DNA of 64,000 nt. Origin: Candidatus Altiarchaeales archaeon. GTDB taxonomy: Archaea; Altiarchaeota; Altiarchaeia; IMC4; SCGC-AAA252-I15. The stretch's first letter is position 1, and the number at the start of each line of letters is the position of its first letter. Below, piece after piece: positions 9,075-32,392 of this stretch. Under the pieces are notes generated by a model. It was given only the letters and a program-made list of their open reading frames with translations, was not told the DNA's origin and made no database searches. The position numbers and the translations under genes are program-made. Location of the stretch: positions 32,001-96,000 of the forward strand of contig WJMO01000005.1 of assembly GCA_014727915.1 (NCBI GenBank). The letters are read 5' to 3'.

Positions 9075-9941
9075 CTATTCGTGCCTTATTATCGTGCTCT
9101 CCTTGTCTAACGGGTTATCAACGAATTTTTGCAGTGTCATCCTGCCCTCGGCCACTTCACCGAGGTTGGCCAGCACCGGCAGCAGGTTGTTGTTGTAGAA
9201 CTGCTGTTTACCCATTGCAGTAGACCGTGTGCTATGGCCCGCTTTGAGGGCTGCTTTACCAGCTGCTTGTATCAGCTCTGGCTGAGCCAGTCCTTCACCG
9301 GGCTCCTTCAATCCCAGACTGTCGGCCCTGTCCCATATCCTCCTGCCCTCAACCCTGGCGTCCTCTATGATCTGGCCCAATGTCTTGTCGCAGTCGAAGC
9401 ACTCCCTGAATCTCATGTTGTTTCTGACATGCTCTGGAACAACATCCGCAAGTTTCATATTTTCCAGACTAGTAATCTGGCCTGGGATATGATTCCCTAG
9501 AACCGGGCTGTCCCGGCCTTGCTGCTCCAATGGCACGACCCTCATCGGCGTGGGCGTCAACCTGATCTCTTGCTCTGCGGGTGCCTGCGCACCATTTTCC
9601 AGTGGCCTTCCCTCGCACGTGAACCTGAGCTCGCCCGTGCTCTGAGCCACCTGCTTCATTAAATCCCTGTCTCCCCGCTTTAAAGCTGCCGCCGCCCTCT
9701 CCAACGCCCCCCTAACCTCCTTCATGTCCTCGCTTCTGCCTGTGCTGTCCCGAATAGCCAACAGCGAACTATGGCCGATCTGAGCTGCTTTGTTCGCAAG
9801 TCCCTTGCCCCTTATCTGCATCAGCCCGGGGTGAAGTTCCCCTGATTCGGATGTTAGGTCAACTTCTATGGTCGTCCTGCCACGTTCGTCCACGTTCTTG
9901 CTGACGCCTCTTATGTGCCTACGCTCCAGGGTGACTGCCAT
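9075..9941 (-). CDS. hypothetical protein carrying the shared N-terminal domain (insert gene 4)
   Basis: 288-aa ORF; its N-terminus aligns by eye with three neighbours. Confidence 0.75.
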   Translation of the reverse strand: MAVTLERRHIRGVSKNVDERGRTTIEVDLTSESGELHPGLMQIRGKGLANKAAQIGHSSLLAIRDSTGRSEDMKEVRGALERAAAALKRGDRDLMKQVAQSTGELRFTCEGRPLENGAQAPAEQEIRLTPTPMRVVPLEQQGRDSPVLGNHIPGQITSLENMKLADVVPEHVRNNMRFRECFDCDKTLGQIIEDARVEGRRIWDRADSLGLKEPGEGLAQPELIQAAGKAALKAGHSTRSTAMGKQQFYNNNLLPVLANLGEVAEGRMTLQKFVDNPLDKESTIIRHE

Positions 9942-9985: not shown

Positions 9986-11458
9986 CTATCCTTGCCTGTG
10001 GGTGCTGCCCGTGCTCAGCTGCATTCTTGTGAATCCGTCCAATATGGCCTTCGCTCTCCCCTGGTAGTGCTCTCTGGTGCCCGGGGGCAGGGCTTGTGTC
10101 AGCTCTCCCGTGTATCCTGCGAAACTCTCAGGGCTCATCTGCACCGCAACGGTCAGGTCCGCTATGGTCGGGGGCCCCATAACAGTGGAATTCAAAGCCC
10201 TATCAGATGGCGTATTCCTCACTCTCTCGGACGCGTACTTCAACGCCCGGGCGAAACACAACTCACCCGGCTCGCTAGCCTGTATCGTGGGATTTCCCTG
10301 CGGATAGGCTTGTTTCGCCCTCTCGGCCTGGCCGCGGAGGCACTCTCCCCTAACCCATCCTGCGACCTGGTTGACGTAGCGGGCGGCGTTCATGTAGGCG
10401 CTCCTCGCGGTAGCAACCTGCTTTTCATCAGCGGTGGCAGACGTCCGCCTGGCCATCTGGTCCATTGCCACTTGGCTCAGGTGCTCGTCGAGGGTCAGAC
10501 CCCTGCGCTGGGCTGCCCGGGTCATCTCAGATATCCTCTGCCCTATGTAGAGCTTGACGGCATTCGGGTTCTCAAGCTGGGGGTTGGACTTCAGGAACTC
10601 CGCGTCGGAGGCTGGGAACTCCCTGCCACACGCCGCCTCGGCGATGCGCGCGCTCTGCCTCATGATCTGAGCCTGGCTTCCGGGGTTTTCCATGTCGCTT
10701 CCCCGGTTGGGACAGTTCTTCATGTCAACCGTTAGAACGCCGAGCTTCACATCCGACTCCGCGTTTGGAGCGGCTGGTATGTTCTGCTGTACTGCCCCAG
10801 CAGCTGGGACGCTGCCTGTGACCGGCGGGGCCTGGACTTCACGAGCCCGCGGGGGTGCTGGGGCAGCTGGAGGTGTCGGGGGATATCCTACTCTCTGAGG
10901 TGCGACCTGCTCTGGCATGGTCTGCGGGGGCAACACGACCGGCGGCTGTTTTGTCTGCCGGACTACCGGCGGCGGCTCGACCTCCCCCTCCCTATGCCCC
11001 GGTGCCGGCGGCGGCTTTGGAGACTGCCTGATTCCCGTCCTTGGAAGGGGCGGAGGCCTGATGTTTCTGGTGGAGGTCGCAGGCTGGTCTGATGTCACCT
11101 CCCTACCTTCTGATATGAAGCTGAAAGCGTAGCATTTGTCTACTGCAGACTTCCTCTCAGGGTTTATGACTCCTCCTGTTCTGAGGTCGGCGAGGGCGTC
11201 CCCGAAGAAGCTCTGGACCTTAAGCTGAGTGTCCAAGTCTGGGGTGTCGGTCTCCCCCTGGACTTTCTTTATTGCGGACAGTCCTCTCTGCCCCATTGCC
11301 TCGATCTGCTGGTGGGTGCTGCCCGGGGGAACGACCTCCTCGTTTCCCGGCCTCAGATGCACGTATAGTGTGAGCTTCTCCTGCCTGTCGTGGCCGTGGT
11401 CTCCGACTTGGGCTTTGACGCTCTCTATGTGCTCCTCCCTAATCTGTTTTACGGCCAC
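9986..11458 (-). CDS. hypothetical protein: shared N-terminal domain, Pro-rich linker, helical C-terminal domain (insert gene 3)
   Basis: 490-aa ORF with GTG start; MAVKQIREEHIESV N-terminus; Pro-rich linker. Confidence 0.75.
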   Translation of the reverse strand: MAVKQIREEHIESVKAQVGDHGHDRQEKLTLYVHLRPGNEEVVPPGSTHQQIEAMGQRGLSAIKKVQGETDTPDLDTQLKVQSFFGDALADLRTGGVINPERKSAVDKCYAFSFISEGREVTSDQPATSTRNIRPPPLPRTGIRQSPKPPPAPGHREGEVEPPPVVRQTKQPPVVLPPQTMPEQVAPQRVGYPPTPPAAPAPPRAREVQAPPVTGSVPAAGAVQQNIPAAPNAESDVKLGVLTVDMKNCPNRGSDMENPGSQAQIMRQSARIAEAACGREFPASDAEFLKSNPQLENPNAVKLYIGQRISEMTRAAQRRGLTLDEHLSQVAMDQMARRTSATADEKQVATARSAYMNAARYVNQVAGWVRGECLRGQAERAKQAYPQGNPTIQASEPGELCFARALKYASERVRNTPSDRALNSTVMGPPTIADLTVAVQMSPESFAGYTGELTQALPPGTREHYQGRAKAILDGFTRMQLSTGSTHRQG

Positions 11459-11753
11459 CTTCAGATTCTCCAGTATGCTGTCTCTTTATATTCTCAAGCA
11501 GCTTGCTCTTCTCGTCGAGGTCGTGTATTATCTCCTCGTCCAGCCTAACCTTGATGTTCTCCACGTTCTTGGCGCCGAGCTTCTCCAACACCTCCGACGC
11601 GGGCTTGCCCGACAGCTTCCTGAGGAACTCAACGGTGTCCTCGTCCAGTTTTTCAGGGTCAACGTCGACTGTGATGTTCAGCTTGCCGGTCTCAGGGTCA
11701 GTGGACACCACAACCTCCCGGATACCCTCCTTCCTGATCTCAGGCTCCATCAC
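11439..11753 (-). CDS. small protein made mostly of the shared N-terminal domain (insert gene 2)
   Basis: IRKEGIREVVVSTDPETGKLNITVDVDP...LEKLGAKNVENI. Confidence 0.7.
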   Translation of the reverse strand: MMEPEIRKEGIREVVVSTDPETGKLNITVDVDPEKLDEDTVEFLRKLSGKPASEVLEKLGAKNVENIKVRLDEEIIHDLDEKSKLLENIKRQHTGESEGGRKTD

Positions 11754-11816: not shown

Positions 11817-14093
11817 TCACATATCTGCCTTCTCTGTCGTGGCTGCTTTCTCAGCAGATTCAGTTACTGGTTGCTCTGCTCCGCCGGTCAGGCTGGCTAG
11901 CGTGTGTGCCACCACCCTCTGATGGTCTTCCTGTTCCATGGACTTGAGCCGGTCCGCGCCGAGGGCGCTCTGGTACACCATCCCGGCAATCAGCCGCGGA
12001 TCGTCCTTGCCGGTCTTTTCATCCGGGCCGAGCTCCAAGTAGCCTAGCATCTGCTCGGCGCCGAGCCCCAGGGACCGAAGACGTCCTGATATCTCGGCTC
12101 CAATCTGCTCTTGTGTCGCGCCGGCTGGGATGGGATGGGCCAACCTGTCCAGCAACCTCTCACGCTCACCCCCAGCTCCTGATTCCCCTCTCATTCTCCC
12201 GCTTATCTGGGCGAACATCTTTCCGTGTTCCGGCTCCCCCATGGACTCCAGCCTTTCATGTCCAAGGGCCCGGGTGTAAACAGCCCTGGCTATCATCCTA
12301 GGGTCGTCTGCCGGGTATTCCCCTGGTTTGGTGCAGGCTTCGAACTCCTCCGGGGTTATGCCCACGGCCTTCATCCTGTCGGATATCTCTGCGGCGACCT
12401 GCTCCGGCGGGACGTCTGGTTTAACAGGGGATCTTATCCTCTGCTCGATGCTCTGTCTTTCCCCCTCACCCTGCTCGGGAGGCTTGTGTCCCATCTTGTG
12501 AAGTATGTCGTTCACCATTCTGGCGTGTTCTTCACCGGTCATCCTGCCCTCACCGCCTTCCCCTCCGTTGACCCGTTCAGCGCCTAGTGACTGGAGGTAT
12601 ATAGCGTGCGCCCTGTAAAGCGGGTCATCGGGTCTCATGTTCTCGTCTGGCGGGGTCTGAACTGCTTCCAGGAACCTCTCGGATGTTATCCCCCCACCCT
12701 GCAACCTCGACCCTATCTCCGCGGCAATCTCGTCATTGGACGTTCCGGCGGGTATGGTCTCGGCCATGACCCTCTCCCTCATCCTCTCATCCATGGCTGT
12801 GGAGGGCCCGGCATCCTGTCTTGGAGGGCTTGCACCATCCGATGTTTCCCCTGCTGATCGCATGCCCCCCACCATCGCCAGCTCGTCCTCTGATACTATG
12901 CTCCCCAGCTCCCCATCGGTCAGGGCGCTCTCCTTCCTCCTTGCGGCTGCCCTGAGCCTCACCTCCCTATGGGCCTTCTGGTGGGGTCCCAGCCTGAAGC
13001 CCCTACCAGTATTCGGCGTGTACTCGTAGGGTTCCTCTATGAATTCGTTGCCCACCCTGAAGGTGAGGCTGTAGCTCTGGTCCATGCCGTTACGGTCGCC
13101 TGTGAACTCCCCCGACTTGTTCTTCGTGCCGTCGACTGCCGCGTTCAGGAAGTTCTGCGCCTCCAACTGGGTTTGCAGCTCGAAACCATGCGCCTTCTTC
13201 CTTATGGATTCCAATGAAGCCGGCCCAAGTTCTTCAAGCCGGTCGCTTGTCGGCTCCGGCCTTGGAACCATAGACTCACAACCCTCCCCTAACGTGACAT
13301 ACAATTTGACACCGGTCGGTGTCTTCTCGGCTTTGACCTCCTCTATGTCATCCGGCCTAATCGCGTCCGGGCCCCTAACAAAATCCCCTGGCTCTCCCGC
13401 CATAGGGGCTGCTACTGGACTCTCTGTTTTCGCCGTATTCACATCCCCGGTTGCAGTAGGGTCCCCGCCTGGAACAGCCCGTCTCTCAGCGGTCGCATCC
13501 TGACCTTCCGCTGAAGTTCTTACCTGCTGGTCTACGTCGCGCCTATCCTGCCTTTCCGATGTTGGCGCATCAGAAGTTGGGGTGCCGGGTCCTGGTGCGG
13601 TCGTAGCCTCTGGGTTAGCCGCTGGCCTCGGCGTCTCTGATGTTGCAGGTGCCGCCCTCTCGCCCTTTTCTGGTGGCATGTCCGCTGATTTCCCCCTTCT
13701 CTCGCCTCCTTTCTGCGCGGGCTGGGGCATGTCTCCTTCCACGAACTCGATCGTCTTGCACCCCTGGTCTATCAGGCCTGCCGTGATAAACGACAGGTCT
13801 CCAGTATCTCTTATCTCGTTGCCTGCCAGGTCGAGGAACTCCGCCGCCCTCTGCCTCTCATGCAAGCTCCTGTCTTTTGGGGATGTTCGGGCGTGTATTG
13901 CACTCAGCGAGTCCGCGCCGAGGTGTTCGAACCTGTCTGCCGGCCCCAAACCCGCGAACTCAGGACCCGGAGGAATAACACCCGCCTTCGGGTCCAGGTG
14001 AACGCGGATTGCCAGCTTACCATCCTCTCCCACTTCAGTGCGCACGCCCTTGATGTCCTCAGGCCTCAGCTGCTGGATCCTCTTGGCCATCAT
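11817..14093 (-). CDS. hypothetical protein: two copies of the shared N-terminal domain plus three ~90-aa helical repeats (insert gene 1)
   Basis: 758-aa ORF; internal repeats visible in the translation. Confidence 0.85.
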   Translation of the reverse strand: MMAKRIQQLRPEDIKGVRTEVGEDGKLAIRVHLDPKAGVIPPGPEFAGLGPADRFEHLGADSLSAIHARTSPKDRSLHERQRAAEFLDLAGNEIRDTGDLSFITAGLIDQGCKTIEFVEGDMPQPAQKGGERRGKSADMPPEKGERAAPATSETPRPAANPEATTAPGPGTPTSDAPTSERQDRRDVDQQVRTSAEGQDATAERRAVPGGDPTATGDVNTAKTESPVAAPMAGEPGDFVRGPDAIRPDDIEEVKAEKTPTGVKLYVTLGEGCESMVPRPEPTSDRLEELGPASLESIRKKAHGFELQTQLEAQNFLNAAVDGTKNKSGEFTGDRNGMDQSYSLTFRVGNEFIEEPYEYTPNTGRGFRLGPHQKAHREVRLRAAARRKESALTDGELGSIVSEDELAMVGGMRSAGETSDGASPPRQDAGPSTAMDERMRERVMAETIPAGTSNDEIAAEIGSRLQGGGITSERFLEAVQTPPDENMRPDDPLYRAHAIYLQSLGAERVNGGEGGEGRMTGEEHARMVNDILHKMGHKPPEQGEGERQSIEQRIRSPVKPDVPPEQVAAEISDRMKAVGITPEEFEACTKPGEYPADDPRMIARAVYTRALGHERLESMGEPEHGKMFAQISGRMRGESGAGGERERLLDRLAHPIPAGATQEQIGAEISGRLRSLGLGAEQMLGYLELGPDEKTGKDDPRLIAGMVYQSALGADRLKSMEQEDHQRVVAHTLASLTGGAEQPVTESAEKAATTEKADM
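11880..12780 (-). repeat. three tandem ~90-aa protein repeats
   Basis: AAEIGSRLQGGGIT..DDPLYRAHAIYLQSLGAERV / AAEISDRMKAVGIT..DDPRMIARAVYTRALGHERL / GAEISGRLRSLGLG..DDPRLIAGMVYQSALGADRL; boundaries approximate. Confidence 0.85.
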
Positions 14094-14300
14094 AGAAAAC
14101 TGGGAAACACACCCCTAAATACCGCATATTCAAAATTATTCAAAGAATTTTCAAAATAATCCTGACTTTTCCCCCTATAGTTGTTGTTTGCTGCTTTTAT
14201 ACCCTATTGGCGTAATATTATAGGTTTCAGATGCACCTGAGTCTGCCATTGCACTGGCAGAATGCAGGGAAGTATGTGAAGATCTGGGTGTGCAAATAAA

Positions 14301-14927
14301 ATGTACAAGATAGTTACAGTTGAGGACACGGTCAGGGTCCCGCCGGCTAGGTTCAGCGAAGACCTGGAGACCGTGATAACGCAGGAACTGGAGAACATGG
14401 TAGTCGGCAGGATAGACAAGAGCCTTGGAGTGGTGCTGGCTGTCACAGGCATCGACGAAGTCGGCGACGGGAAGATCATACTAGGCGACGGCGCAGTATA
14501 CTACAGCGCAAGATTCAAGATACTAGTCTACGAGCCAATGGTCAACGAGGTAGTCGAGGGCGAGGTCACTGAGGTCACGGAATTCGGCGTGTTCGTCGGG
14601 TTCGGCCCCATCGACGGGCTCATACACGTGTCCCAGATAACCGAGGACTTCATGAGCTACGACCAGAAGAACAGCTCGTTCGTGGGCCGGGAATCAAACA
14701 AGATACTCAAGGTAGCGGATGTCGTACAGGCCAGGATAGTCACGGTGAGCATGAAGTCCCGGGCCACGGAGTCGAAGATCGGATTGACGATGAGGCAGCC
14801 CTACCTGGGCAAGCTGGAGTGGATAGAGGACGACCGGAAGAAGCTCGAGGAGAAGATAAAGGCCGAAGACAACAAGGAAAAGGAGAAGGAAAAGAAGAAG
14901 GGCGGCAAGAAGGAGGGTGATAAATGA
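14301..14927 (+). CDS. rpoE1: RNA polymerase subunit E' (Rpo7)
   Basis: VRVPP, GDGAVYY, S1 domain GPIDGLIHVSQI, KIGLTMRQPYLGKLEWI. Confidence 0.97.
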   Translation: MYKIVTVEDTVRVPPARFSEDLETVITQELENMVVGRIDKSLGVVLAVTGIDEVGDGKIILGDGAVYYSARFKILVYEPMVNEVVEGEVTEVTEFGVFVGFGPIDGLIHVSQITEDFMSYDQKNSSFVGRESNKILKVADVVQARIVTVSMKSRATESKIGLTMRQPYLGKLEWIEDDRKKLEEKIKAEDNKEKEKEKKKGGKKEGDK

Positions 14928-15100
14928 GGGCCTGCAAGTCATGCATGCGGTTGAGCGAGGAGGAGCGCTGTCCAGTCTGCGGCTCCAACACGAGCCAGTA
15001 CTGGAGCGGCTACTTCGCAGTATTGGATCCTGAGACCTCACAGATAGCGAAGAAGATGGGCATAAAGTCCCCCGGCCAGTACGCGCTCAAGGTGAGGTAG
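14924..15100 (+). CDS. spt4: transcription elongation factor Spt4 (RpoE'')
   Basis: Not in the ORF track. My translation: MRACKSCMRLSEEERCPVCGSNTSQYWSGYFAVLDPETSQIAKKMGIKSPGQYALKVR. Confidence 0.95.
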   Translation: MRACKSCMRLSEEERCPVCGSNTSQYWSGYFAVLDPETSQIAKKMGIKSPGQYALKVR

Positions 15101-15105
15101 ATTGC

Positions 15106-15594
15106 ATGGAGTTGACGCCCCGGCTCAGGGAAGAGCTGAAGAAGCCCCTCGGCGACGTAGTGACGGAAACATCCAAGATTCCCGTTGACGCGCCGCTCAT
15201 ATGCGTCGGTGACACCGCATCGGACACGATGCTCTCAGCGGGCTACAAGCCCAAGCTCCTAGTCTATGACGGCAGGACCGGAAGGCACGAGATCGGCGTG
15301 TCGGAGACGATAAGCTCATACGATGCCGTGGAGCGAACCGTCGCTAACCCGCCCGGAAAGCTTGAGGAAGGCGTTTTCGAGCTGTTCAGGGAGGTCTTGG
15401 ATGGCGGTGGGCCTGGCAGGGTCTACGTCGAAGGCGAGGAGGATTTGACCGCGCTCGCGGCCATAAGGGAGGCTGCAGTCGGTTCGGTGGTCGTCTACGG
15501 GCAGCCGGGCGAGGGCCTGGTAGTCGTGGACGTCAACGAGAAAACGAAAAATAGGGTTAACAAGATAATCGAGGATATGGAAGATGGAAGTTGA
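15106..15594 (+). CDS. GTP-dependent dephospho-CoA kinase (DUF359)
   Basis: LKKPLG, VGD, NPPG, VEGEEDL and YGQPGEG motifs. Confidence 0.92.
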   Translation: MELTPRLREELKKPLGDVVTETSKIPVDAPLICVGDTASDTMLSAGYKPKLLVYDGRTGRHEIGVSETISSYDAVERTVANPPGKLEEGVFELFREVLDGGGPGRVYVEGEEDLTALAAIREAAVGSVVVYGQPGEGLVVVDVNEKTKNRVNKIIEDMEDGS

Positions 15595-16090
15595 TATGAT
15601 CGAGGACAAGGAGAACCCCCTCCTAAACAGGAGGGAGATACGGTTTAAGGTGTCCTACCAGGGTCCGACCCCTGCCAGGCAGGATGTGCGGAGCAAGATA
15701 ATTGCGATGCTGAACTTGGACAAGGAACTCACCCTGTTGGACAAGCTGGATCCTCAGCAGGGGTCCCAGGTTGCGCTTGGATACCTTAAGTCCTACGGTG
15801 ACAAGGCTGCGATGTCCATAGAGCCGGAGTACCTGTTGAAGAGGAACTTCGAGGTCAAGGAGGAGCCGAAGGAAGACGGTGGCTCGCCTCCCTCAGGTGA
15901 TGATGGGGGCAGCCCGGACGGAGAGGGCGAAAGCGGCGGTGACAAGGCCGCGGCTGAGGGCGGAGACGCTAAGTCTGAGAAGTCTGGGGCAGGCAAGCCG
16001 GATGAGAAGGCGGAGAAGGATGATGAGAAAGGCGAGGATAAGGCTAAGGCAGGCTCTGAAGACGAGACCGGCCCTAAGGAGGGTGAGTGA
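15584..16090 (+). CDS. rps24e: 30S ribosomal protein S24e with long acidic/Gly C-terminal extension
   Basis: [11 protein letters not shown]...TPARQDVR; conserved synteny. Confidence 0.93.
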
Positions 16091-16323
16091 TGGCTAAAGG
16101 CAAGAAGAAACGCAGGGAAAGGGAGAGGAAGGAGAAGGTGCCCAAGAGGAAGAGCGCCAAGTGGAAGGTATATGATGTCTCAGGAGAGGCTGTTAAGAGG
16201 AGTCTGAAATCATGCCCCAAATGTGGTGACGGCGTTTTCCTAGCGGACCATAAGACGCGCATGACCTGCGGGAAATGCGGTTACACGGAGTTCACCCGAA
16301 AGGGAGAAGAGGAAGAAAAATAG
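16090..16323 (+). CDS. rps27ae: 30S ribosomal protein S27ae
   Basis: [27 protein letters not shown]. Confidence 0.97.
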
Positions 16324-16358
16324 GAGCACTTAACTGCATTCACTCCCAATGTTTTCCA

Positions 16359-16907
16359 ATGAGGGTCGTGGGTTTGGACCTGGCCGGAAGCCCTAAGAAC
16401 AGCACAGGATTCTGCATTTTGGAGGTTGAGGGCGGGAAGACCGTCCATACCCGGCTGATACACTCTGACGAGGAGATACTGTCGGATGTCACGTCCGCTG
16501 ACCCGGACCTCGTGGCAGTTGACGCGCCCCTCATCTACGAGGGTGTGCGCAGGAACTGCGATGACCTGCTTCGCGAATATGGTGCCCTGCCCGTGACCTT
16601 GAAGGGCATGGAGGTTCTTGCAGAACGCGGGAGAAAGATCGCATCCGACCTGAAGCGATTGGGCCTGGATTATATCGAGGTTTTCCCTACTGCGTCCGCG
16701 AAGATACTGGGAGTATACAGCAAGAACGACTTCACACTCCAGAAGAACATGATGGCATTGGACCTGAAGGGGGACCTGAACACCAAGATACTATCAAGGG
16801 ACGAGTTGGACGCGGTCCTCGCCTCGTTGACGGGATTCCTCTATCTCCAGGGCCAGTCCGAGCCGGTCGGCGACGAAAACGGCCTCGTTCACATACCTCT
16901 CGTCTGA
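16359..16907 (+). CDS. DUF429 family protein (RNase H-like fold)
   Basis: VVGLDLAG, VAVDAPL, IEVFPTAS, DELDA motifs. Confidence 0.85.
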   Translation: MRVVGLDLAGSPKNSTGFCILEVEGGKTVHTRLIHSDEEILSDVTSADPDLVAVDAPLIYEGVRRNCDDLLREYGALPVTLKGMEVLAERGRKIASDLKRLGLDYIEVFPTASAKILGVYSKNDFTLQKNMMALDLKGDLNTKILSRDELDAVLASLTGFLYLQGQSEPVGDENGLVHIPLV

Positions 16908-16943
16908 TGCTATAAAAGCGTCTAATACCATAGTTGAAACGTA

Positions 16944-18317
16944 ATGGGCGAATACGATTTCATCGTCGTGGGCGGGGGGCCGGCTGGAATGTTCGCCGCA
17001 TACGCCCTATCAGAAGCTGGAAGGAAGGTTCTGTTACTCGATGAGGGCAAGAACGTTTCAGACCGGCATTGTCCCATGGCCGAGTCTGGCGCATGCGTAA
17101 ACTGCAGGCCCTGCGATGTTATGACCGGACTGGGGGGTTCCGGGCTTTACAGTGATGGCACCCTGAACTTGAGGCCTGACATCGGCGGCGACCTCAGTCA
17201 GCTGACTGGCAGTGATGACCGGGCCTGGGAGCTGGTCGAACGTGTGGACGAGATATTCCTGCGTCATGGGGCTCCCGATAGGCTATACGGGGGGGACGAG
17301 GAGAAGATCGCCGAGTTGAAGAGGCGCTGTGCCTCTGACGACATCAAGTTCATAGACATACGTCAGCGTCACATAGGCACGGAGAACACTCCTGCGGTCA
17401 TCGAATCCATTGCGGAGCATCTGAGGGGTTCCGGAGTTGATATCATGGTGTCCACCAGGGTTGAGGACATCATAGTGGAGGATGGCCGGTGTGTCGGGGT
17501 CAAGACCGTCAAGGAAGAGTTCAGGGCTGGCGGCGTTCTACTGGCTCCTGGCAGAGTAGGGGCAAAGTGGGTTGATGAGCTGGTTGCTGAGCACGGTATA
17601 AAGGCTGTTTTCGGCCCTATCGACGTGGGGGTGAGGGTTGAGGTTCCAGCGTTGATAATGGAGTCCGTCATCGAGGTCAACCATGACCCTAAGTTCCACA
17701 TACGAACCCCAACATATGACGATTTTGTCCGTACATTCTGCACTAACCACCAAGGATGGGTTGTGAAGGAGAGCTATGATGGCCTGGTCGGAGTTAACGG
17801 GCATAGCATGCTCAAGGACATGTCTGGCAACACTAACTTCGCCTTCCTGGTGAGGGTGGCTTTGACTGAGCCAGTTGAGGACACGGTCGAATACGGCCGC
17901 GCGATAGCCGACCTGGCCACCACAATAGGGGGTGGGAAGCCGATACTACAGCGTCTCGGAGACCTCAGGCATGGCCGCAGGTCGCACCCCCATAACATCG
18001 CGGATAACCTGTTCGAGAACACGTTGAAGGATGTCACGCCCGGGGATGTTTCGATGGCGTTGCCTCACCGGATCGTCGAGGACATACTAGAGGGGTTGGA
18101 GAAGTTGAACGATGTGATACCTGGGGTGAACTCGGATTCCACATTGGTCTATGCCCCGGAGCTGAAGTTCTACAGCATGTGCGTGGAGGTAGGGTCCAGG
18201 ATGGACTCTAGCATCCCTGGATTGCACGTTGCAGGTGATGGGGTGGGGTTGAGCAGGGACATAGTTAATGCGGCTGCGACTGGTTTGCTGGCTGCTGAGG
18301 GAATGCTGCCACGATGA
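16944..18317 (+). CDS. NAD(P)/FAD-dependent oxidoreductase (COG2509-like)
   Basis: VVGGGPAG, Cys cluster [30 protein letters not shown]. Confidence 0.9.
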
Positions 18318-18823
18318 ACGCGTCCGTTTTGAGGCTGGGTCACAGGCACAGCAGGGACAAGCGCATCAGCACACATGTCGCGTTGACTGCCAGGGCGTTC
18401 GGCGCCTCCAGGATAGTCTATGATGGTCGTGCTGTTGATGTTAAGGAGAGCGTCGATGAGATAACCTCCTCATGGGGTGGTGACTTCAAGGTCGAGTTCA
18501 CGGAAGGCTACCGTGATTTCATCAACTCCTTCGAGGGCTTGAAGGTTCATCTCACAATGTATGGCCTGCCCCTGGATGATGTGGTGGCCGACTTCGGCCT
18601 TGAGGGGGATATTCTGGTTGTGGTCGGAGGTGCGAAGGTGCCTTCGGATGTGTTTGAGCTGGTGGACTACAACGTTGCAGTGGGTAATCAACCGCACTCG
18701 GAGGTCGCGGCTCTTGCAGTGTTCCTTGACCGCATATTCGGGGGTGGTGAGCTGGACAGGGACTTCAAGGGCAGGATGAGAATTGTCCCTCAGAACCGCG
18801 GGAAGAAAGTATTGGAGGGATAG
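18314..18823 (+). CDS. trm56: tRNA (cytidine(56)-2'-O)-methyltransferase
   Basis: [49 protein letters not shown]. Confidence 0.96.
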
Positions 18824-18828
18824 TCGAC

Positions 18829-21800
18829 TTATTCGTCTCCTCGGTCGTCGTCTTCGCTTCCCCCGGTTATGCCATAGTCTATCTGGCCTGACTCGTCTCG
18901 GTCTTCAAGCATGTCCTCCAACTGCCTTCCGACGCTCTTTGTGCGCTGCCTACCGAAACCTCCCATGTAGGTCATGTGTTCCTTGAGTGTTTGCATTCCT
19001 GCTCTGTCCTCACCCATCATCTCAGCGCCTAAATCCCCCACCTTCTCCTGGGCTGGGGATACGCCAGTCGAACCTGAGACTTCGCTATCTGGTGCTGCCT
19101 GGCTCGCCTGGGGTCCTGAACCCTCCTCGGTTTCTGATGGCTGTGCGGTTCCCGCATCTGCTGATGCGGTTGGCGCAGGCTCAGATGTCGGCGTTGGCTG
19201 CTGGCTCGCGTCCGGCTCTTGCGCAGGCTGTGATGTTGCGGTCGGCTGCTGGGTTGCATCAGGTTCTGGGGTTGATGGTGTGGTGTCAGGCTGTTGTGCG
19301 CTGGTCTCTGCCGCTTCGGGTTCCGGCGTCGTTGGCTGCTGTCCGTCGCCTGCTGCGGGTGCTCCCTGCTGGCTCTGGTCTGGCTGCGCCTCCGCCCCGC
19401 CCTCGGCTGCCTGGGCTTCGTTGGCTCTCATGTGGTTGAGTGTTGACTGTTTCAAAGCGTCGTTCTGGTCGGCGTTCATGCTCACCGCCTGGTCGTGTGT
19501 TAGGGCTCTCGTGTACGCTGTTGATGCGGTCTGCCCTCCGCTCCCGTATTCCGGGGCCTCGCCGGCTGGGGTGTCCACGAACTGTTGGAAGTCATCAGCG
19601 CTCACTCCCGCCTCTTGCATCTGCTGGGCCATCTCCGCCCCCTGCCGGTCTGTTTCAGCGTCTATCCTCGGATGGGGCCTCTGCTGCTGTTGTCCTCCGG
19701 TCCCCGCCTGTCCGCCCCGTCTGCTCTGGCTTCCGGTTGAACCTGCGGTCGTGGATGTTCCCCTACCATCCCTGCGCGCGCTGTATGCTGTCACAACGCT
19801 TTGGCCCGCGCCCCAGGCGCCGCGCACTCCCATCTTCCCAAGCCTCCATCCCAGGGGGAATGAGCTCAAACCCCCGGTCGCGGCGAACTTCAATGCTTCC
19901 ATGGGTGCGTGTATAAAAGCAATCTTGGCGGCTGCCACTCCCAGGTCCATGCCAATCCCTGCGGCTTTCCCTAGCACGAACCCTATCCTCGAGCTTGCCC
20001 TGTCCTGCCCCCTATAGCTTGTGACGGTATCGCGTATCCCCGTGGTTGACATGCCATCGAATACTCCGCTGAAGAACGTGCTCTCCCTTACGCCCCCCCT
20101 GACGGTGTTCAGCCCTTCCGATAGTTGTCCCGGGTCTGTTCCGAGCTTCCGAGCGGACAGTTGCATCTGCCGCTGTCTTATCTTGTTCAAAGTCGCCTCT
20201 CTTGTCGCCGGGTTCTGGAGGGCTGCGTTCACTCCCGCGGTCCCGGAGGGCATCATCGCGCCTCCCGGGTAGTCTGTGCGGCCGACGTCCTGGACGGCAT
20301 CCTGCCAGCTGGCTCCGCCTACGGCCTCCAGCAACTGGCTGTCGCTGGCGTTCCTCAGGTCTCCGACAGTGTTTATTCCTGCTTGCTGGAGGTTAGCCAC
20401 GGTCGTGTCGGAGTTAAGCCCCAGTGATTCCATGACCTCCCTGTTGTATCCGCTGTCTATCCCCAGGCCCTGGGCTGACTGCCCGATTGCCCTTCCAATA
20501 CCCGTCACTTCCATGACCTTGCTTACCGTGTAGGCCGATATTCCCAACCCCACCAGGGTCCCCGCTCCCATCCCTCCTATGCCTGCTATAGTGCCTATTA
20601 TGGCGAGCGCCTGGACTGTCATCGCCCATTTGCCGAGGCCCCATGCGGTCCCGATCACGCCCGCGCTTGCCATGGCTCCTAGGATGTTGCTTGCGACGTA
20701 TGATAGGCCTGCTCCTACGTTGTATATGCCCATTATGGACTTGCCAACAAGAGTCTCCGACCTGTAGAATGGTGTTTTCGGCTGCTGGGAGGCTGTGCTT
20801 GGCTGACTGCTTGGCCCGCCAGTGGTCTCTCCTAATCCCCTGCCTAGTCCGAAGCCCCATCCCCCGACCCATCTTCCGAAGGACCAGAGCCCGCTTCCAA
20901 CACCGAACATCCGCCCCTGGCGTGCGAACCATTTGCCCCACCTCTGCCTTCTCGCTGCTGTCCTCTTCTGATACCTCTCCGCAAAGCCTTTCATGCCTGG
21001 CATCTTGGAGAGCACCCTACTTGCTTTAGCTCTCTGGCCTACCCTAGCCCTTCTTGATATGGACTTCAATTCGCTGGTTCCCAGGCCGCCCTGCTCTGCC
21101 TCGTCACCTCCCATGAACATCTTTGAGATGTTCCGGCCCACGAATGACCCGCTCATGCCGATCGCACCCAACGCACCCGCATTATAGGACCACTTGGCCG
21201 CTCTCAAAAGGCTTCTCCCTATCATGTTCCCTGTCTTGGGCAGGGCTCCTCCTATGCCCATGCCTATGAACATGCCCAGCGGACCCCCAGCCAACGCGCC
21301 GATGGCTCCGCCTATAACCATTCCCATACCGCGTTTTCTGACCTGTCCCACACCCCACATGGCAGCCTTCTGCACGTGCTTACCAAATCCTAGCCCTACT
21401 CCCATGCCTATCGCAAGCCCGAGGGGGCCTCCCAGGGCGAGTCCGATGCCGGCTGATATGGCGATGCCCATCGCCCGGTGACCCAGGTATCCTCCGACGG
21501 CCACTCCCGCTCTCTTAGCCCATCCCGCGCCATAGTATGCGCCAAGTCCGATGCCGTATCCGGCCCATCCCAGCCCGTAACCGGCATAGTATGCTCCTTT
21601 GCCTGCGAGCCACGCGCCCTTGCCGGCCAGCCACAGTCCAGCGCCAGCAGCCATTCCCGCCACACCGATCAATGCTCCCAGACCGTATCCTCTCCCCAGC
21701 AGTCCTACGCTCCCTCTCATCAGAGAACCTCCCAGTCCGCTCAGACCCTTCGTAGCAGCCCAGCCTATGCCCATACCCAATCCCTTTAGTCCTGCCCAAC

Positions 21801-23160
21801 CGTATGACAGGGCACCGCTGCCAAGCTTACCTGCTGCGCCGCTGACAGTCTTCCAAGCCTGCCCAACCCGTCCTTGCTCCCATCTCTTAGCAGTCTGGCT
21901 CCACTTCCGCCTCCTCTCCGATGGCCTCTTACCCGGTTTCTTGCCGCTTTTAGGCCCTCCCGGCCGTTTTTTCATCTTCTTCCCGAGCCTTGATATGCTT
22001 CCCACCCCTGCTGACAGTCCGGCGGCGACCACGGCTTCCGCGCTCTGAGCCTGCATCATCTGCCCCGCCCCGACCATTGCAACACCTGCGAAGCCGGGGG
22101 TCAGCTGCCCCGCCCCAGATAGTATTGCCCCTATCATCGCAAGCGCTCCTGTGACTATCAAGGGGGAGATGATTATCATGCACATCAGGGAGATGGCCGC
22201 GAAAACGGTGAAATTCGACTCTACGGTCGGCCGGGCCTCCATCACTATCCCCGTTATCAGCACCCACATTGCCATGACGACATTCACCATAGCCCATGTA
22301 AGGCTGTACTTCAGGAACGTGCGCCCTATGCTCTTGGTGAAGTCCCACAGGTACAGGAGGCAGGTCAGAGGCATCATTATCGCCATCAGATGGATTATTG
22401 TATATCTCAACATGATCATCGTCACCGCCAGCAGGCCTACTATCTGACCGCAGCAGAAGGAGAAAAGATAGGCCTTGTTGTCCTTGCCTATCCCCTTGTA
22501 CGAGGATGCTATGCTCTTCCCAAAGTCCGGGCTGGTTGTGACCTGCTGGTATAGGCCGTCGATCCTGTTATAGCAGTGGTCCGGCACATCATATACTTCC
22601 GCGCATGTAAGCGGGGGCGGCCCGGGGTTGGCTATGGGCGGGGGGTCCTTCATTATCACGCCGCCTATCAGGCTGACCGTGATCTGGTATGAGATGTCAA
22701 TGAGCATCTGGTAGAAGTAAGGGGAGAAGGGCACTATGATAAGTGCGAGCAGCAGCCTCTGGAGCTGCGCCTTTGCGGCCGCTCTCTCTCCCGGGCTGTT
22801 GGAGAATATCATCATCTTTATGGCGGTTATGAGTATTGCGAATATGACCAGGGGCATGATCCACCGCATCACCATCCCGGCCATTAACAGCGTGTTGCCC
22901 TGGTTTATGACGGGCCTTCCAAGGGTTTCATTGCTTAGGCTCCAGGGTATGAGGTTTATCAAGAGGGCGGAGTCCCCCATGAAAGTATGCAATATGAACG
23001 CGTAGAAGTCTATGACCAGATTGGAGAACCATTCGCTAACCCCCTTTATCACGTCTCCTGAGATGGCTGCGGCACTCTGTGAAAAAACCAGTATCAACAG
23101 TATTGCTGACGCAGCTTTAGCCTTCTTCGCAGAATAAACCGTCTCTAAGGATGTTTTCAT
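18829..23160 (-). CDS. extended VirB6/TrbL-like polytopic membrane protein (1443 aa)
   Basis: N-terminal multi-TM region with SNSPGERAAAKAQLQRLLL and LRYTIIHLMAIMMPLTCLLYLWDFTKSIGRTF (VirB6-like R..L....PL.....T motif), then glycine zippers, HhH-like motif, shared helical repeat and an acidic P/Q/T tail. Confidence 0.7.
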   Translation of the reverse strand: MKTSLETVYSAKKAKAASAILLILVFSQSAAAISGDVIKGVSEWFSNLVIDFYAFILHTFMGDSALLINLIPWSLSNETLGRPVINQGNTLLMAGMVMRWIMPLVIFAILITAIKMMIFSNSPGERAAAKAQLQRLLLALIIVPFSPYFYQMLIDISYQITVSLIGGVIMKDPPPIANPGPPPLTCAEVYDVPDHCYNRIDGLYQQVTTSPDFGKSIASSYKGIGKDNKAYLFSFCCGQIVGLLAVTMIMLRYTIIHLMAIMMPLTCLLYLWDFTKSIGRTFLKYSLTWAMVNVVMAMWVLITGIVMEARPTVESNFTVFAAISLMCMIIISPLIVTGALAMIGAILSGAGQLTPGFAGVAMVGAGQMMQAQSAEAVVAAGLSAGVGSISRLGKKMKKRPGGPKSGKKPGKRPSERRRKWSQTAKRWEQGRVGQAWKTVSGAAGKLGSGALSYGWAGLKGLGMGIGWAATKGLSGLGGSLMRGSVGLLGRGYGLGALIGVAGMAAGAGLWLAGKGAWLAGKGAYYAGYGLGWAGYGIGLGAYYGAGWAKRAGVAVGGYLGHRAMGIAISAGIGLALGGPLGLAIGMGVGLGFGKHVQKAAMWGVGQVRKRGMGMVIGGAIGALAGGPLGMFIGMGIGGALPKTGNMIGRSLLRAAKWSYNAGALGAIGMSGSFVGRNISKMFMGGDEAEQGGLGTSELKSISRRARVGQRAKASRVLSKMPGMKGFAERYQKRTAARRQRWGKWFARQGRMFGVGSGLWSFGRWVGGWGFGLGRGLGETTGGPSSQPSTASQQPKTPFYRSETLVGKSIMGIYNVGAGLSYVASNILGAMASAGVIGTAWGLGKWAMTVQALAIIGTIAGIGGMGAGTLVGLGISAYTVSKVMEVTGIGRAIGQSAQGLGIDSGYNREVMESLGLNSDTTVANLQQAGINTVGDLRNASDSQLLEAVGGASWQDAVQDVGRTDYPGGAMMPSGTAGVNAALQNPATREATLNKIRQRQMQLSARKLGTDPGQLSEGLNTVRGGVRESTFFSGVFDGMSTTGIRDTVTSYRGQDRASSRIGFVLGKAAGIGMDLGVAAAKIAFIHAPMEALKFAATGGLSSFPLGWRLGKMGVRGAWGAGQSVVTAYSARRDGRGTSTTAGSTGSQSRRGGQAGTGGQQQQRPHPRIDAETDRQGAEMAQQMQEAGVSADDFQQFVDTPAGEAPEYGSGGQTASTAYTRALTHDQAVSMNADQNDALKQSTLNHMRANEAQAAEGGAEAQPDQSQQGAPAAGDGQQPTTPEPEAAETSAQQPDTTPSTPEPDATQQPTATSQPAQEPDASQQPTPTSEPAPTASADAGTAQPSETEEGSGPQASQAAPDSEVSGSTGVSPAQEKVGDLGAEMMGEDRAGMQTLKEHMTYMGGFGRQRTKSVGRQLEDMLEDRDESGQIDYGITGGSEDDDRGDE

Positions 23161-23210: not shown

Positions 23211-26200
23211 CTATGCCTTACCGTCGAATTCGTCCCTTGCCTTCGCGAAGTCCAGGGCCTTCCCACTGAAGAACCTGTAGGACATTACAGCCGCGAAGGC
23301 TATCAGCAACACCCACAGGTTGTCCATCAGGTAATCGCAGAATTCCGGGGGCTTGTCCACTGGGACGGTGTCCACGAACGGGACTGACCTCTTGAAACCA
23401 TGGTCGTCGTGGCAGGTTATGACTGCCGTGATCAGCCGGTCCACGGGGAACATTATCTCCTCGTTAAGGTCGTACCATCCAGTGTATTCTATGTACGGGT
23501 GCTGGAACTGTATGTAGAAGTGCTTGCAGTATGGGTCGTACCCGTCTTCTGAGCTCTGGTTCGTGCATACGTTAAGCACTGCCGGCCATACCTTTATTAT
23601 CCTGGAGTTCTCGTTGAAGTCCGATTCCAGGTAGAACTCTTCAGGCGGGGGCTTGTTGACCCTCACCGTAAGGCCTCCGCTTCCGGCTCCGTGTTGTGCT
23701 CCGTCGGGGCAGATGGGAGCGTCTCCGAAGGCGGGGAAGTCCTGGCTCTGGAAGGGGGTGTAGACTTCAATGTCGGTGAATCCTAGCTCGTACTCTGTGA
23801 GCGAGTTGCTGTCTAGTATGAGCGTGTACGACTGTGGCGCAATGCCCTTCGGCTCGCATTCTTTGAGGTATTCTATATTGCATTTGCTCTCTCCGAAGTT
23901 CCATTTGTACCTGAACTGGAAGTGGTCCAGCCAGTAGGCTTTGAACTCCTCCTCGGCGCAGTGGTTCCTGTACTTGCTGGGCACTCCCTCGCATGGGACC
24001 AGCCCAGACAGAACCCACTTGTTCAGGTCCTTGCAGGTCTCGTTGTCGATGGGGTAGAGGTTTTCGAACTCCTCCTTGTATTCGCAGTCGCACCTGCCCC
24101 CCTCGCATACCAGATCCGCTATCTGGTTGCACATTGGCGGGCAGTCCTGGATAGAAGAGCACTGGTAGTCGACGTCCCTCCACTCTTCGCTGTCGCAGTA
24201 TAGCGCGTACCTCACATACGCTTTGCCTATGGGCTTGCTCTTCTTCAGGAATCTCACGTTGGTCCACTCGTCAACCCTCCAGTTGTCGTCGTCCAGGCCA
24301 CGCTCAACATCCTGCATCCTCCAGTAAAGCGCTGCGAAGTCGTAGTAGTGCGGTTCGTCCTCGTGGAAGTTCCTTAGCAGGCCGATGTTGGAGGATATCT
24401 CGTATATGTAGTTGTAGCATTCAGCACGGCCCTTGTCAACAAGCCATAGGGGGTGCTTCCAGGTGTACTGTGAGCCGTATGCGCTGAACTGGTCTATGAA
24501 GAAGTGGCTCTTCTTGGATGGGTTGTACGTCCACCTGACATACAGTGGGTCGCTTGTCTCGTATTCCAAGTCTATCTCCTGGCCTGGCGGGGTCAACCGG
24601 GTCTTGTAGCATTCCTTGGCCAGGTCGAGGAGCCTTGCGTTCTCCTCGGTGACCTCCTTCCAGTCCTGGGGAAGTGTCGACTGCAACGCGGTCCCGTCAT
24701 GCCAGGGGTAGTACTTCTTCGGCGTGAAGTCCATCATAAGGTATTGTTCGTAAGCGTCTTCTATGGTTAGTGTGAACCCGTCGAATAGGTCGTATACGAA
24801 TCTTCCGGGGCTCCTTGTCGACTCCTCGTCCACGGCTTTGAAGTTCAGGTAGGCGAAGGCCCAGTTCTCGTTGCTGCTGTCCTCGTGTCCGTGCTGTATC
24901 GTCCCGTTCACCTTTATCACCGCCTCGGAGTTCCCCGAGTCTATGGGGTTCTCCACCCTCAGATGGTCTCCGTAGTCGTCAGCCCATATCCTCGAATAGT
25001 CCTTCATCTTCTCGTAGACTATCTCCCACTCGCACGGTCCCTTGTCCTTCGTAACCAGGTAGTCTGCGAGGTTTACGCTGTCGTGGTGCCAGCACCCCCA
25101 GCAGGTGTAGTCGCACCTGCAGTCGTGGTAGTAGTAGCATTCCAGCTCTATGGGCACCCCGTTGCATGTGGTCCAGTAGGTGCACTCGCACCACGAGTGC
25201 GCGGGCGGGTTGTCGTTATCCCACTGGAAGGGTATGGGGTCCTGGGTGTATGGGGTCCTGGGCTGGTTGCCCCGGCAACAGCAGGGCGGCGTGAAGTCCC
25301 CGGCGTACACTTCATTGTGGGTAACGAACCATTCCGTCTCGCATGTTATGTCGTTGACTATGATCTCCTCCCACTGCTCCCACCTGTAGCTGATGACCTT
25401 CTCCTCGAGCCTGCTGCAACCCTGCCAACCGCACTGTTTGACCAGCAGCTCCCGTTTCATCTCGTTTATTACGCTGTACTTGAGCCCCACGTTCAGGTAC
25501 CTGGTCTCCGGGCTCAGCTGCACCTCCTGCTTGTCCTCGTGCATGACCGAAGCAGGCGCCGGCGGCTTCTCGGTCAGCAGGTTGTCCTTTCCATATAACT
25601 TGTTGCTTGTCTTGGCCTTGCTGAAAGATTGCACGTCAACTACGCCGTGGTTCTCGTCGTATTCCGTTACCATGATGTCCATCTGGGCGAACGGCTCCTG
25701 CCCGGGGTTTCTCGGGTATGTGTGAACCTCTTTCCTCTGCATCCTACCGCATGATTTCGGGATGTGGGCTGCGGCGTCGACGGCGTAGGGGTCCACTGGC
25801 ATTCCATCGACTACCTTCCCTCCTGTGAATCCTCCATGCCCTGACATGACCACGTTGCACTGGTGCGCTCCACCGGACACGTCAGACCTCTTGCACGTTG
25901 TTGGTTCCATCGAGTTGCAGGTCCCTGGCATGCAACCCATGCATCCTCCGTCGACCTCCCCTCCGCCTGCCATGTCGCATCCTTTGATCCCATCCTCCTT
26001 GTCCCAGTCGCCTCTCATCGCCCGCCCGCAGTTGCACTCCTCTGATATGCACTCCAGCGTCCGGCCGTCCGGCCCGTTGAGGAACGACTTGTACGGTTTC
26101 ACGGTGGCGTCTATGCCCCAGAAGTCGCCGTTGCAGACCGGCAGCGGCTCCCCATACTGGTACTGGTCTCCGAAGTTCCGGGCCTCGAACCATATGGGGC

Positions 26201-31603: not shown

Positions 31604-32392
31604 ATGGCTGACGGAGACTATCCTGAACCGGGGGAGCTGGTTATCGGCACTGTCAAGAGCATATTCAACCAGGGCGCCTTCATAGACCTGGACGAGTACA
31701 CCGGCCGAAGGGGCATGCTGCACCTGTCCGAGATAAGCCTGAAATGGGTGCGGAACATCCGGGACTACGTGAAAGAGGGGCAGAAGGTTGTTGTGGTAGT
31801 CCTGAGGATAGACCCCAAAAGGGGCCACATCGACCTGTCTCTTCGGAGGGTGAATGACTCCCAGAGGAAGCAGAAGCTGCAGCAGGTAAAGCAGAAGCAG
31901 AGGGCGTTGAAGCTTTTGGAGCTGATGGCGTCGGAGCTGAAGCTGAAGCCAGAATCCGTCACCAAGAAGCTGTCGAACACGCTTTCAGAATATGACTCCC
32001 TCTACTCCGGCCTTGAGGCCATCTCACTGGACGAGAAGGTCGCAGACGGCCTTGACATCCCCGACAAGTGGCGCAAGAAGCTCGTGGAGCTGGTGAAGAA
32101 GAGCATCAAACCACCGGTGGTCGAGGTGACGGGCTTCGTAAAATTGCAGAGCTTCGAGTCCGACGGCGTTGAAATGATAAAATCCTCCCTGCGTGAGATA
32201 CTGAAGCACAAGCCCCGTGACTGCGACATGGAACTAAACTATGTGTCCGCGCCGCTGTACAGGGTGAAGGTCCGGGCCTCCGACTACAAGAAGGCGGAGA
32301 AGGCCATGCGCAAAGCCGTCGACCAGGGCATCTCCTACGTTGAAAGCCACAAGGGCAACGGCGAATTCCACAGGGAGCTGGAGGGGAAATGA
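31604..32392 (+). CDS. eif2a: translation initiation factor 2 subunit alpha
   Basis: YPEPGELVIGTV S1 domain, KWVRNIRD, GHIDLSLRRV, SAPLY. Confidence 0.97.
   Translation: MADGDYPEPGELVIGTVKSIFNQGAFIDLDEYTGRRGMLHLSEISLKWVRNIRDYVKEGQKVVVVVLRIDPKRGHIDLSLRRVNDSQRKQKLQQVKQKQRALKLLELMASELKLKPESVTKKLSNTLSEYDSLYSGLEAISLDEKVADGLDIPDKWRKKLVELVKKSIKPPVVEVTGFVKLQSFESDGVEMIKSSLREILKHKPRDCDMELNYVSAPLYRVKVRASDYKKAEKAMRKAVDQGISYVESHKGNGEFHRELEGK

Follow-up and report, generated by a model that had tools for sequence, protein, structure and literature searches.

Introduction

Extended VirB6 proteins of type IV secretion systems (T4SSs) are exemplified by TraG of the F plasmid and by the RvhB6 paralogues of the Rickettsiales. 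Here we analyse a protein of 1443 aa that resembles them, encoded in a 64,000-nt stretch of DNA (the window, in whose numbering coordinates are given throughout; positions 32,001 to 96,000 of contig WJMO01000005.1, assembly GCA_014727915.1) from a 1.8 Mb archaeal genome of 13 contigs, together with o758, an orphan protein of 758 aa encoded nearby, with which it shares a helical module. The likeness to extended VirB6 proteins lies in a long hydrophilic extension that comes after a polytopic membrane domain at the N-terminus, and in the presence of several paralogues in this genome, which adjoin genes for a VirB4-like ATPase and for pilin-like proteins. TrwI/VirB6 of R388 (PDB 7o3v, 8rt9, 8rtd) serves as the structural reference, and the TrwJ/VirB5-TrwI/VirB6 stalk chains of R388 are the best, though not decisive, match. 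Unlike extended VirB6 proteins, the 1443-aa protein does not match the TrbL/VirB6 family of Pfam, it seems to have a pilin-like two-helix segment fused ahead of the VirB6-like domain, and the gene is paired with that of a giant M23-peptidase protein, not with that of an ATPase.

Many uncultured archaea and bacteria with small genomes carry chromosomal type-IV-secretion-like genes whose oversized VirB6-like subunits have long, fast-evolving tails. In two related genomes, soluble proteins with a common N-terminal domain have copies of modules from such tails, a different module in each genome. This sharing links otherwise uninterpretable orphan genes to the machine, and suggests that the tails are modular functional parts and not spacers.

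Effectors of the type VI secretion system are divided into 'evolved' effectors, which are fusions to VgrG or PAAR, and 'cargo' effectors, such as those with MIX or FIX domains, and the LXG toxins of the type VII secretion system combine a handle with small Lap/WXG partners. The present locus is like handle-bearing effectors and polymorphic toxins in that proteins with a conserved N-terminal domain (hereafter the N-domain) have unrelated C-terminal parts, and in that a small protein consisting of the handle only is encoded immediately upstream. It is like evolved and cargo effectors in that the C-terminal module of a free protein recurs as a fusion to a structural subunit of the machine, and in its strain-specific presence. 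Unlike in polymorphic toxin loci, no toxin domain is recognisable in the window and no immunity gene was identified, and the machine is T4SS-like and archaeal.

A further parallel is offered by the effector-associated domains (EADs) of NTPase-centred bacterial conflict systems, for which the part of the account drawn on here describes a small helical domain that a core component has in common with the separate product of a nearby gene (Kaur, Burroughs, Iyer and Aravind, 2020, PMC7159879), as is the case in the window. According to the same part of that account, EADs may occur in multiple copies, and lineage-specific paralogues are closest to each other (PMC7159879). Unlike in EAD systems, there is no NTPase core at the present locus, the genes are near each other and not adjacent, no Pfam model is matched and the host is a secretion-type membrane protein. 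The locus also recalls the chromosomal T4SSs of Patescibacteria, where, in the portion of the account used here, non-plasmid VirB4, VirB2-like pilins and VirB6 are described from small-genome uncultured lineages (PMC12102498). That portion has a bacterial focus, with archaeal VirB4 sampled only from the Ced and Ted DNA-import systems and three conjugative plasmids, and it does not speak of tail modules that soluble proteins also carry, as they do in the present case (PMC12102498). Neither extended VirB6 proteins nor adaptor or handle domains are new in kind; our literature search found no private tail module shared with a soluble N-domain protein family in an archaeal T4SS-like context.

A helical module is shared by o758 and the VirB6-like tail

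The C-terminal part of o758 (11817..14093, minus strand) carries three helical repeats of about 100 aa in tandem, namely repeat 1 at aa 436-545 (12459..12788, minus strand), repeat 2 at aa 546-645 (12159..12458, minus strand) and repeat 3 at aa 646-745 (11859..12158, minus strand), which are 34-36% identical to one another over 88-98 aa (blastp E 2.4e-11, 6.8e-16 and 1.4e-16). A hidden Markov model (HMM) built from these three repeats alone was searched against the 17,417 six-frame open reading frames (ORFs) of at least 50 aa in the genome. Its sole match outside o758 is the stretch of aa 1167-1252 in the tail of the 1443-aa protein (HMM envelope 19405..19662, minus strand), which spans positions 14-99 of the 102 in the model (86 positions) with an E-value of 1.6e-5 and 24.8 bits, the next match in the genome having an E-value of 0.41. 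In the reverse direction, phmmer with the tail stretch returned o758 as the best non-self match (E 5.2e-5), with its three repeats aligned in register, followed by an off-frame R/G-rich ORF within a real gene (E 0.0017). None of 5000 composition-preserving shuffles of the tail stretch reached the real score (32.4 bits; shuffle maximum 11.0). Pairwise blastp connects the tail copy with repeat 2 only (28% identity over 67 aa, E 2.8e-5), repeats 1 and 3 giving no match; the tail copy is 21-26% identical to the o758 repeats, and all copies are 21-37% identical among themselves. Nine invariant positions are common to the four copies, and in both proteins the module is flanked by low-complexity linkers.

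A first-pass annotation of the window had proposed that this repeat occurs three times in the orphan protein and once in the VirB6-like protein, and had suggested an HMM of the three repeats as the check; the module is indeed found in this distribution, and the match of the tail is significant genome-wide. The tail stretch that the annotation quoted corresponds to aa 1172-1245 (19426..19647) and lies inside the HMM envelope, and the YTRAL that it had reported as common to repeat 2 and the tail copy is indeed the same in both; this observation was correct. So was its placing of the two genes at about 5 kb from each other across housekeeping genes: the distance is 4.7 kb, and the interval holds, on the plus strand, rpoE', DUF359, S24e, a 78-aa ORF, DUF429, an FAD oxidoreductase and Trm56 (the 78-aa ORF, between S24e and DUF429, was outside the Pfam scan of these genes). 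Homology of the module between o758 and the VirB6-like tail is confirmed by these profile comparisons, and it is the only link that can be detected between the two loci.

A single-sequence AlphaFold2 model of aa 428-758 of o758 has a mean predicted local distance difference test score (pLDDT) of 72.2 and a predicted TM-score (pTM) of 0.34. The repeats appear in the model as separate helical units (block pLDDT about 75-89) with low-confidence Gly/Glu linkers between them, and the helices occupy the same alignment columns in all three; given the pTM of 0.34, the packing of the repeats against each other is undefined. By alignment, helices 1-5 are kept in the tail copy, with Pro and Gly at the first helix and at the start of helix 3. 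The helical character attributed to the repeat from its letters agrees with the AlphaFold2 model, which covers the o758 repeats only. The best explanation of this stretch of about 90-100 aa is that it would form an independently folding five-helix domain, restricted to this lineage.

The module has no counterpart among the families of Pfam, NCBIfam or PHROGs. Searched with the module profile, the PDB sequences gave RecX as the best match (E 0.037). The three-repeat model returned nothing at E<=0.001 with Foldseek (best 0.29), and in a wide VIA search the best Z was 5.6 (FERM alpha-lobe, HopPmaL and Csm2-type bundles), which is below the level meaningful for helical bundles. In the ESM Atlas there was no usable feature match for the module or for o104 (see below), and structural neighbours had TM values below 0.45. 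A four-copy profile searched against 1.84 billion representative proteins recovered the window's own two proteins and four long repetitive proteins, which match over pieces of 27-38 residues only; these four were rejected as relatives. The repeat is thus not widespread in unrelated proteins, a distribution that the first-pass annotation had named as one that would count against its proposal, and in view of the lack of any relative among the 1.84 billion proteins, or of a known family or fold, the module is essentially private to this genome. Two of these four (P0004 and P0005), which are unrelated giants, have many copies of a two-helix motif of about 25 residues, 'A..L...G(I/F)T(P)', which is like helices 1-2 of the module; by eye, caspase-like/HATPase-like regions are recognisable in one of them and ankyrin repeats in the other. 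Instead of indicating homology, the motif may be a helix-turn-helix-like building block in common use.

The N-domain family and a second case of sharing

The gene for o758 is followed head to tail on the minus strand by those for o104 (11439..11753), o490 (9986..11458) and o288 (9075..9941). These four adjacent ORFs contain five copies of the N-domain, of about 120 aa, two of which are in o758 (copy 1 at aa 1-130, 13704..14093; copy 2 at aa 241-375, 12969..13373; both minus strand). The 104 aa of o104 consist of the N-domain only, and o490 and o288 continue into C-terminal regions of 365 and 173 aa, respectively, without a detectable relative. Pairwise blastp finds similarity between the N-domains in some pairs only (28-32% identity, E 4e-10 to 0.003); a profile recovers all five copies with E-values of 1e-31 to 1e-44, and the next match in the genome has an E-value of 0.52. 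The C-terminal parts of the N-domain proteins are mutually unrelated, and those of o490 and o288 match nothing but themselves in the genome. No match in Pfam, NCBIfam or PHROGs was found for o758, o490 or o288, and o104 and the 1443-aa protein gave sub-threshold noise only in these three collections. Neither a signal peptide nor a transmembrane segment is seen in the sequence of o758.

The N-domain profile matches two of the 61 genomes of the phylum, this one and a genome of the same family (G013). Among the longer proteins of a collection of 5.8 billion clusters, it matched only two of the window's own proteins. G013 encodes a 95-aa protein that consists of the N-domain only and is 39% identical to o104 (E 6e-20), and directly after it a 695-aa protein (L030:10228-12315, on G013:C29). 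The first 137 residues of the latter match the N-domain over its full length but weakly (E 0.008, or 0.0026 with the 95-aa protein added; hhalign E 0.001). A small partner directly upstream of a larger N-domain protein is therefore found here, where o104 and o490 have 20 nt in common (11439..11458), at the 3' end of the former and the start of the latter, and is mirrored by the contiguous pair in G013, which suggests that the small and larger proteins are translationally coupled.

The 695-aa protein of G013 provides a second case in which a C-terminal part is shared with a giant. Its C-terminal domain (aa 452-687) has one other copy in G013, at aa 1435-1660 of a 2342-aa protein (L060:6981-14009, on G013:C9), with an E-value of 1.5e-5 genome-wide, a blastp E-value of 7e-10 and 24% identity. 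The 2342-aa protein carries the VirB6-like membrane domain, as judged by the profile built from this domain (A3; E 7.7e-58), to whose input the protein did not belong. Hence, in both genomes with N-domain proteins, one such protein shares a C-terminal module with a VirB6-like tail, the modules themselves being unrelated. Among the new observations, this recurrence is the strongest support for a link between the orphan family and VirB6-like proteins.

The shared G013 domain, of about 230 aa, has an aligned His (AHSSPD / GGHGTPN) and an aligned Cys (QGCKSGA / ASCSTGA) and is without a Pfam match; a Cys/His hydrolase is a possible identity. The domain is present in two of the 49 genomes of the order, the copy in the other genome (G011) being part of a 655-aa protein without an N-domain, which limits the weight of this evidence. 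The gene for the 2342-aa protein is the second of a tandem pair, whose neighbours, compared by eye from ORF starts, are like those of a pair in the window's own genome (C12:243850-252905). The latter consists of tandem VirB6-like giants of 1570 and 1450 aa, located away from any ATPase gene, and does not contain the His/Cys domain.

The 1443-aa protein as a VirB6-like subunit

The gene for the 1443-aa protein (18829..23160, minus strand) encodes a signal peptide, about 7-8 hydrophobic helices within aa 1-390 and, between residues 167 and 229, a 60-residue Cys-containing loop, according to hydropathy. At least five transmembrane helices with a large loop, the arrangement by which the polytopic domain of VirB6 is recognised, are therefore present. 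The helices are followed by a Lys/Arg-rich stretch, a Gly-rich hydrophobic middle and a hypervariable acidic tail, which contains the helical module, a Pro/Thr/Gln-rich low-complexity stretch and the conserved C-terminal motif SVGRQLEDMLEDRDE (aa 1409-1423, 18892..18936, minus strand). Of the 49 genomes of the order, 47 have the membrane domain, for which several copies are usual; this genome has it in five ORFs.

The polytopic domain (aa 1-400, 21961..23160, minus strand) was modelled by AlphaFold2 with an alignment of 30 sequences, yielding long helices (pLDDT 82.5, pTM 0.72). Its best match of solved structure is provided by the VirB5/VirB6 stalk chains of R388, which make up eight of the ten top rows in Foldseek (best E 0.12, probability 0.98, TM 0.43 by target). 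In VIA the same chains reach Z 9.5, 8.9 and 8.6, with 224-235 of 260-272 residues aligned at a root-mean-square deviation (rmsd) of about 6 Å; the best match (Z 9.5) aligns 235 residues at an rmsd of 5.8 Å and the next unrelated chain has a Z of 7.2, all of these values lying below the Z of about 13 under which VIA is not decisive for helical proteins. The structural listing of the R388 chains does not separate TrwI from TrwJ; the matched chain, which is numbered to 272, is presumably TrwI, to judge by the lengths of the two proteins. A profile of the membrane domain finds no better than E 3.3 among the PDB sequences, and the 1443-aa protein as a whole matches no Pfam family at E<=0.1.

Genomic context also bears on the identity of the protein. 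On contig C3 of the same genome, paralogues of 682 and 1665 aa lie with a gene for a 768-aa AAA_10 (VirB4-like) ATPase (C3:64824-67130) and three small pilin-like genes. On the strength of this context and of the best, though not decisive, fold match, 'VirB6-like' is a reasonable working label, and the identity that the first-pass annotation had given to the protein is plausible. Positions of about 62-159 of the membrane-domain profile match the three pilin-like proteins of C3 (C3:63208-63558, 63592-64266 and 77071-77421; E 2.5e-5 to 2.3e-4), for which reason a pilin-like hairpin appears to be fused before the VirB6-like domain. At the start of this domain, at aa ~80-150 (22700-22920), there is a two-helix segment with the motif SNSPGERAAAKAQ, which is common to the three pilin-like proteins of C3 and is weakly matched by an NCBIfam model for a pilin-like protein of a mycoplasma integrative and conjugative element (ICE; E 0.02).

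Module and cassette lie outside the conserved apparatus

Syntenic orthologues of the VirB6-like gene were available from G001 (same genus), G013 and G002, and metagenomic homologues from P0007 and P0008. G001 and G013 have the same gene order as the window, which runs from rsmB and eIF2-gamma past rpoE' as far as Trm56, with the VirB6-like gene and the M23 giant after it. Neither of these relatives has anything that corresponds to the cassette of N-domain genes between the eIF2-gamma side and rpoE', and a search of 40 relatives gave no match for o758. The membrane parts are common to the orthologous VirB6-like proteins; the tails between the conserved parts are unalignable, each having its own private repeats. 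The HMMs of the module and of the N-domain, searched against the orthologues of G001, G013 and G002 with their neighbours and against P0007 and P0008, gave nothing below an E-value of 3.6, and a query with P0007 found no related locus among metagenome contigs. The location of the module in a hypervariable tail and the lack of the cassette in two of two relatives indicate that both are outside the conserved apparatus, the cassette being a genome-specific, accessory insertion.

This bears on a further proposal of the first-pass annotation, namely that the shared module serves interaction or docking and ties the orphan cluster to the secretion apparatus, and that the two loci form one system. This proposal is supported in part. 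The homology on which the proposal was built is real, and the second case in G013 adds to it, but the module lies outside the conserved apparatus and the cassette is missing from both syntenic relatives, so that 'one system' would be at most a strain-specific add-on. Nor is this VirB6-like copy beside an ATPase gene, the VirB4-like gene being on another contig.

The end of the tail is conserved. G001, G013, P0007 and P0008 retain LE(E/D)MLED, within the C-terminal motif, of which G002 has no more than a degenerate form. A fuller form of the motif is (S/K)xG(E/R)QLE(E/D)MLEDRDE, and the several hundred residues that precede it are unalignable. The motif is a candidate short linear signal. By eye, the orthologous tails also have a recurrent F.KM.P.Q motif, like the last helix junction of the module; it did not reach significance and was not used.

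A scan for signs of a mobile element around the cassette found no notable flanking direct repeat and no tRNA nearby. The G+C content is raised in the orphan cluster and in the VirB6-like tail (0.60 versus about 0.55). No NTPase gene lies between or beside the genes for o758 and the 1443-aa protein.

What the shared modules may mean

We favour, tentatively and at somewhat less than an even chance, the reading that a single pool of modules supplies both the tails of the VirB6-like giants and the N-domain proteins, which in the window are the soluble products of a four-gene, genome-specific cassette. A given module would be deployed either fused to the VirB6-like membrane subunit or without this subunit, in a soluble protein; in the latter case, the common N-domain would be the handle that brings the module to the type-IV-secretion-like apparatus, and the small N-domain-only protein encoded just upstream would perhaps be the partner of this handle. 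Roles of the N-domain in recruitment or secretion and of the modules as payloads, as well as a physical meeting of the proteins, are inferred. That the tails between conserved parts are unalignable and have private repeats is what is expected of exchangeable or fast-evolving functional modules.

Several observations weigh against this reading. The N-domain is known from two genomes only, and the pattern thus rests on two cases, one of which includes a borderline assignment, that of the N-domain in the 695-aa protein of G013 (E 0.003-0.008). Two of the three window proteins with an N-domain and a C-terminal part (o490 and o288) share nothing detectable with any giant. The C-terminal parts of the window's N-domain proteins have no family match, no small downstream gene and no immunity-like partner was identified with them, and the helical module is without an enzymatic or toxin signature, so that 'payload' is a label and not a function. 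On the side of the machine, Pfam PF04610 (TrbL/VirB6) has no match at E<=10 anywhere in the genome, contig C12, the home of the gene for the 1443-aa protein, has no AAA_10 match, the only VirB4-like gene found being that of C3, and the sequence of the 1443-aa protein does not give the side of the membrane on which the tail lies. With two genomes and modest E-values, the reading is a lead and not a result.

A bolder form of the same idea is that the N-domain proteins are the first recognisable family of substrates or effectors of the chromosomal type-IV-secretion-like machines of these archaea, the N-domain and its small partner being the recruitment signal and the tails being delivered or displayed effectors whose payloads are interchangeable with free cargo. 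We consider this doubtful. If true, it would offer a way into the function of these machines in uncultured archaea with small genomes.

Homotypic docking, the main rival and in essence the idea of the first-pass annotation, in which the tail copy binds the copies in o758 and thereby tethers o758, and perhaps other cassette proteins through their N-domains, to the membrane machine, is somewhat unlikely. It has a precedent. EADs, which are small and often alpha-helical, occur in a core protein and in the product of an adjacent gene and were proposed, in the part of the account drawn on here, to form a homotypic bridge (PMC7159879). Here, one small helical domain is common to a core membrane component and the product of a gene at 4.7 kb from it, with no further copy in the genome, and the low-complexity linkers on both sides of it are what would be expected of a free-swinging adaptor. 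However, the two genes are not adjacent, the tail copy is only 21-26% identical to the o758 repeats and seems to be without the first helix, and no Pfam model, those of EADs included, matches the module. In addition, the His/Cys domain of G013 looks enzyme-like and fits a payload better than an adaptor. Docking and payload readings are not mutually exclusive.

The sharing could instead be an evolutionary by-product, the tails of the giants and the orphan genes both being fast-evolving, repeat-prone DNA. A tail segment would have given rise to part of a young gene in the neighbourhood, or the reverse, with threefold amplification afterwards, so that the origin but not the function is shared. 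In favour of this are the missing cassette at the syntenic sites of G001 and G013, the failure of o758 to match in 40 relatives and of the module to match among 1.84 billion representative proteins, the private repeats of each orthologous tail and the G+C content raised in cluster and tail alike. Against it, the copies, at 21-37% identity, still keep open frames, the register of their helices and nine invariant positions, which argues for long maintenance under selection. Moreover, five N-domain copies persist in the window and the domain persists in G013 as well, and pure accident does not predict that sharing of this kind recurs there, for a domain unrelated to the module and with another giant. 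We regard this explanation as unlikely. A chance or compositional resemblance of two Ala/Glu/Gln-rich helical stretches, to which the modest score of 24.8 bits, the pairwise match of the tail to repeat 2 only and the E-value of 0.0017 reached by a spurious off-frame ORF would be congenial, is very improbable and largely excluded by the distance between the genome-wide E-value of 1.6e-5 and that of the next match (0.41), by the reciprocal coverage of 86 of 102 profile positions with three repeats in register, and by the failure of all 5000 same-composition shuffles to exceed 11 bits, as compared with 32.4 for the real stretch.

The module homology, together with its parallel in G013, hints at the orphan genes being accessory partners of a secretion-type machine.

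Other features of the locus

Upstream of the gene for the 1443-aa protein lies that of a secreted giant of 2241 aa (23211..29936, minus strand), with a signal peptide and, at aa 80-183, a domain of the M23 family. Peptidases of this kind (LytM-type) act on peptidoglycan; the host here is archaeal. The position of the giant upstream of the VirB6-like gene is conserved in G001, G013 and G002. By analogy, the pairing could recall the cell-wall hydrolase of Gram-positive conjugation, or could point to an action on bacterial neighbours.

In the 1443-aa protein, a helix-hairpin-helix-like stretch, LGLNSDTTVANLQQAGINTVGDLRN, is located at aa ~905-950 (20400-20450), and a similar 'KL..AGI' is seen by eye in the tails of P0007, P0008, G001 and G002.

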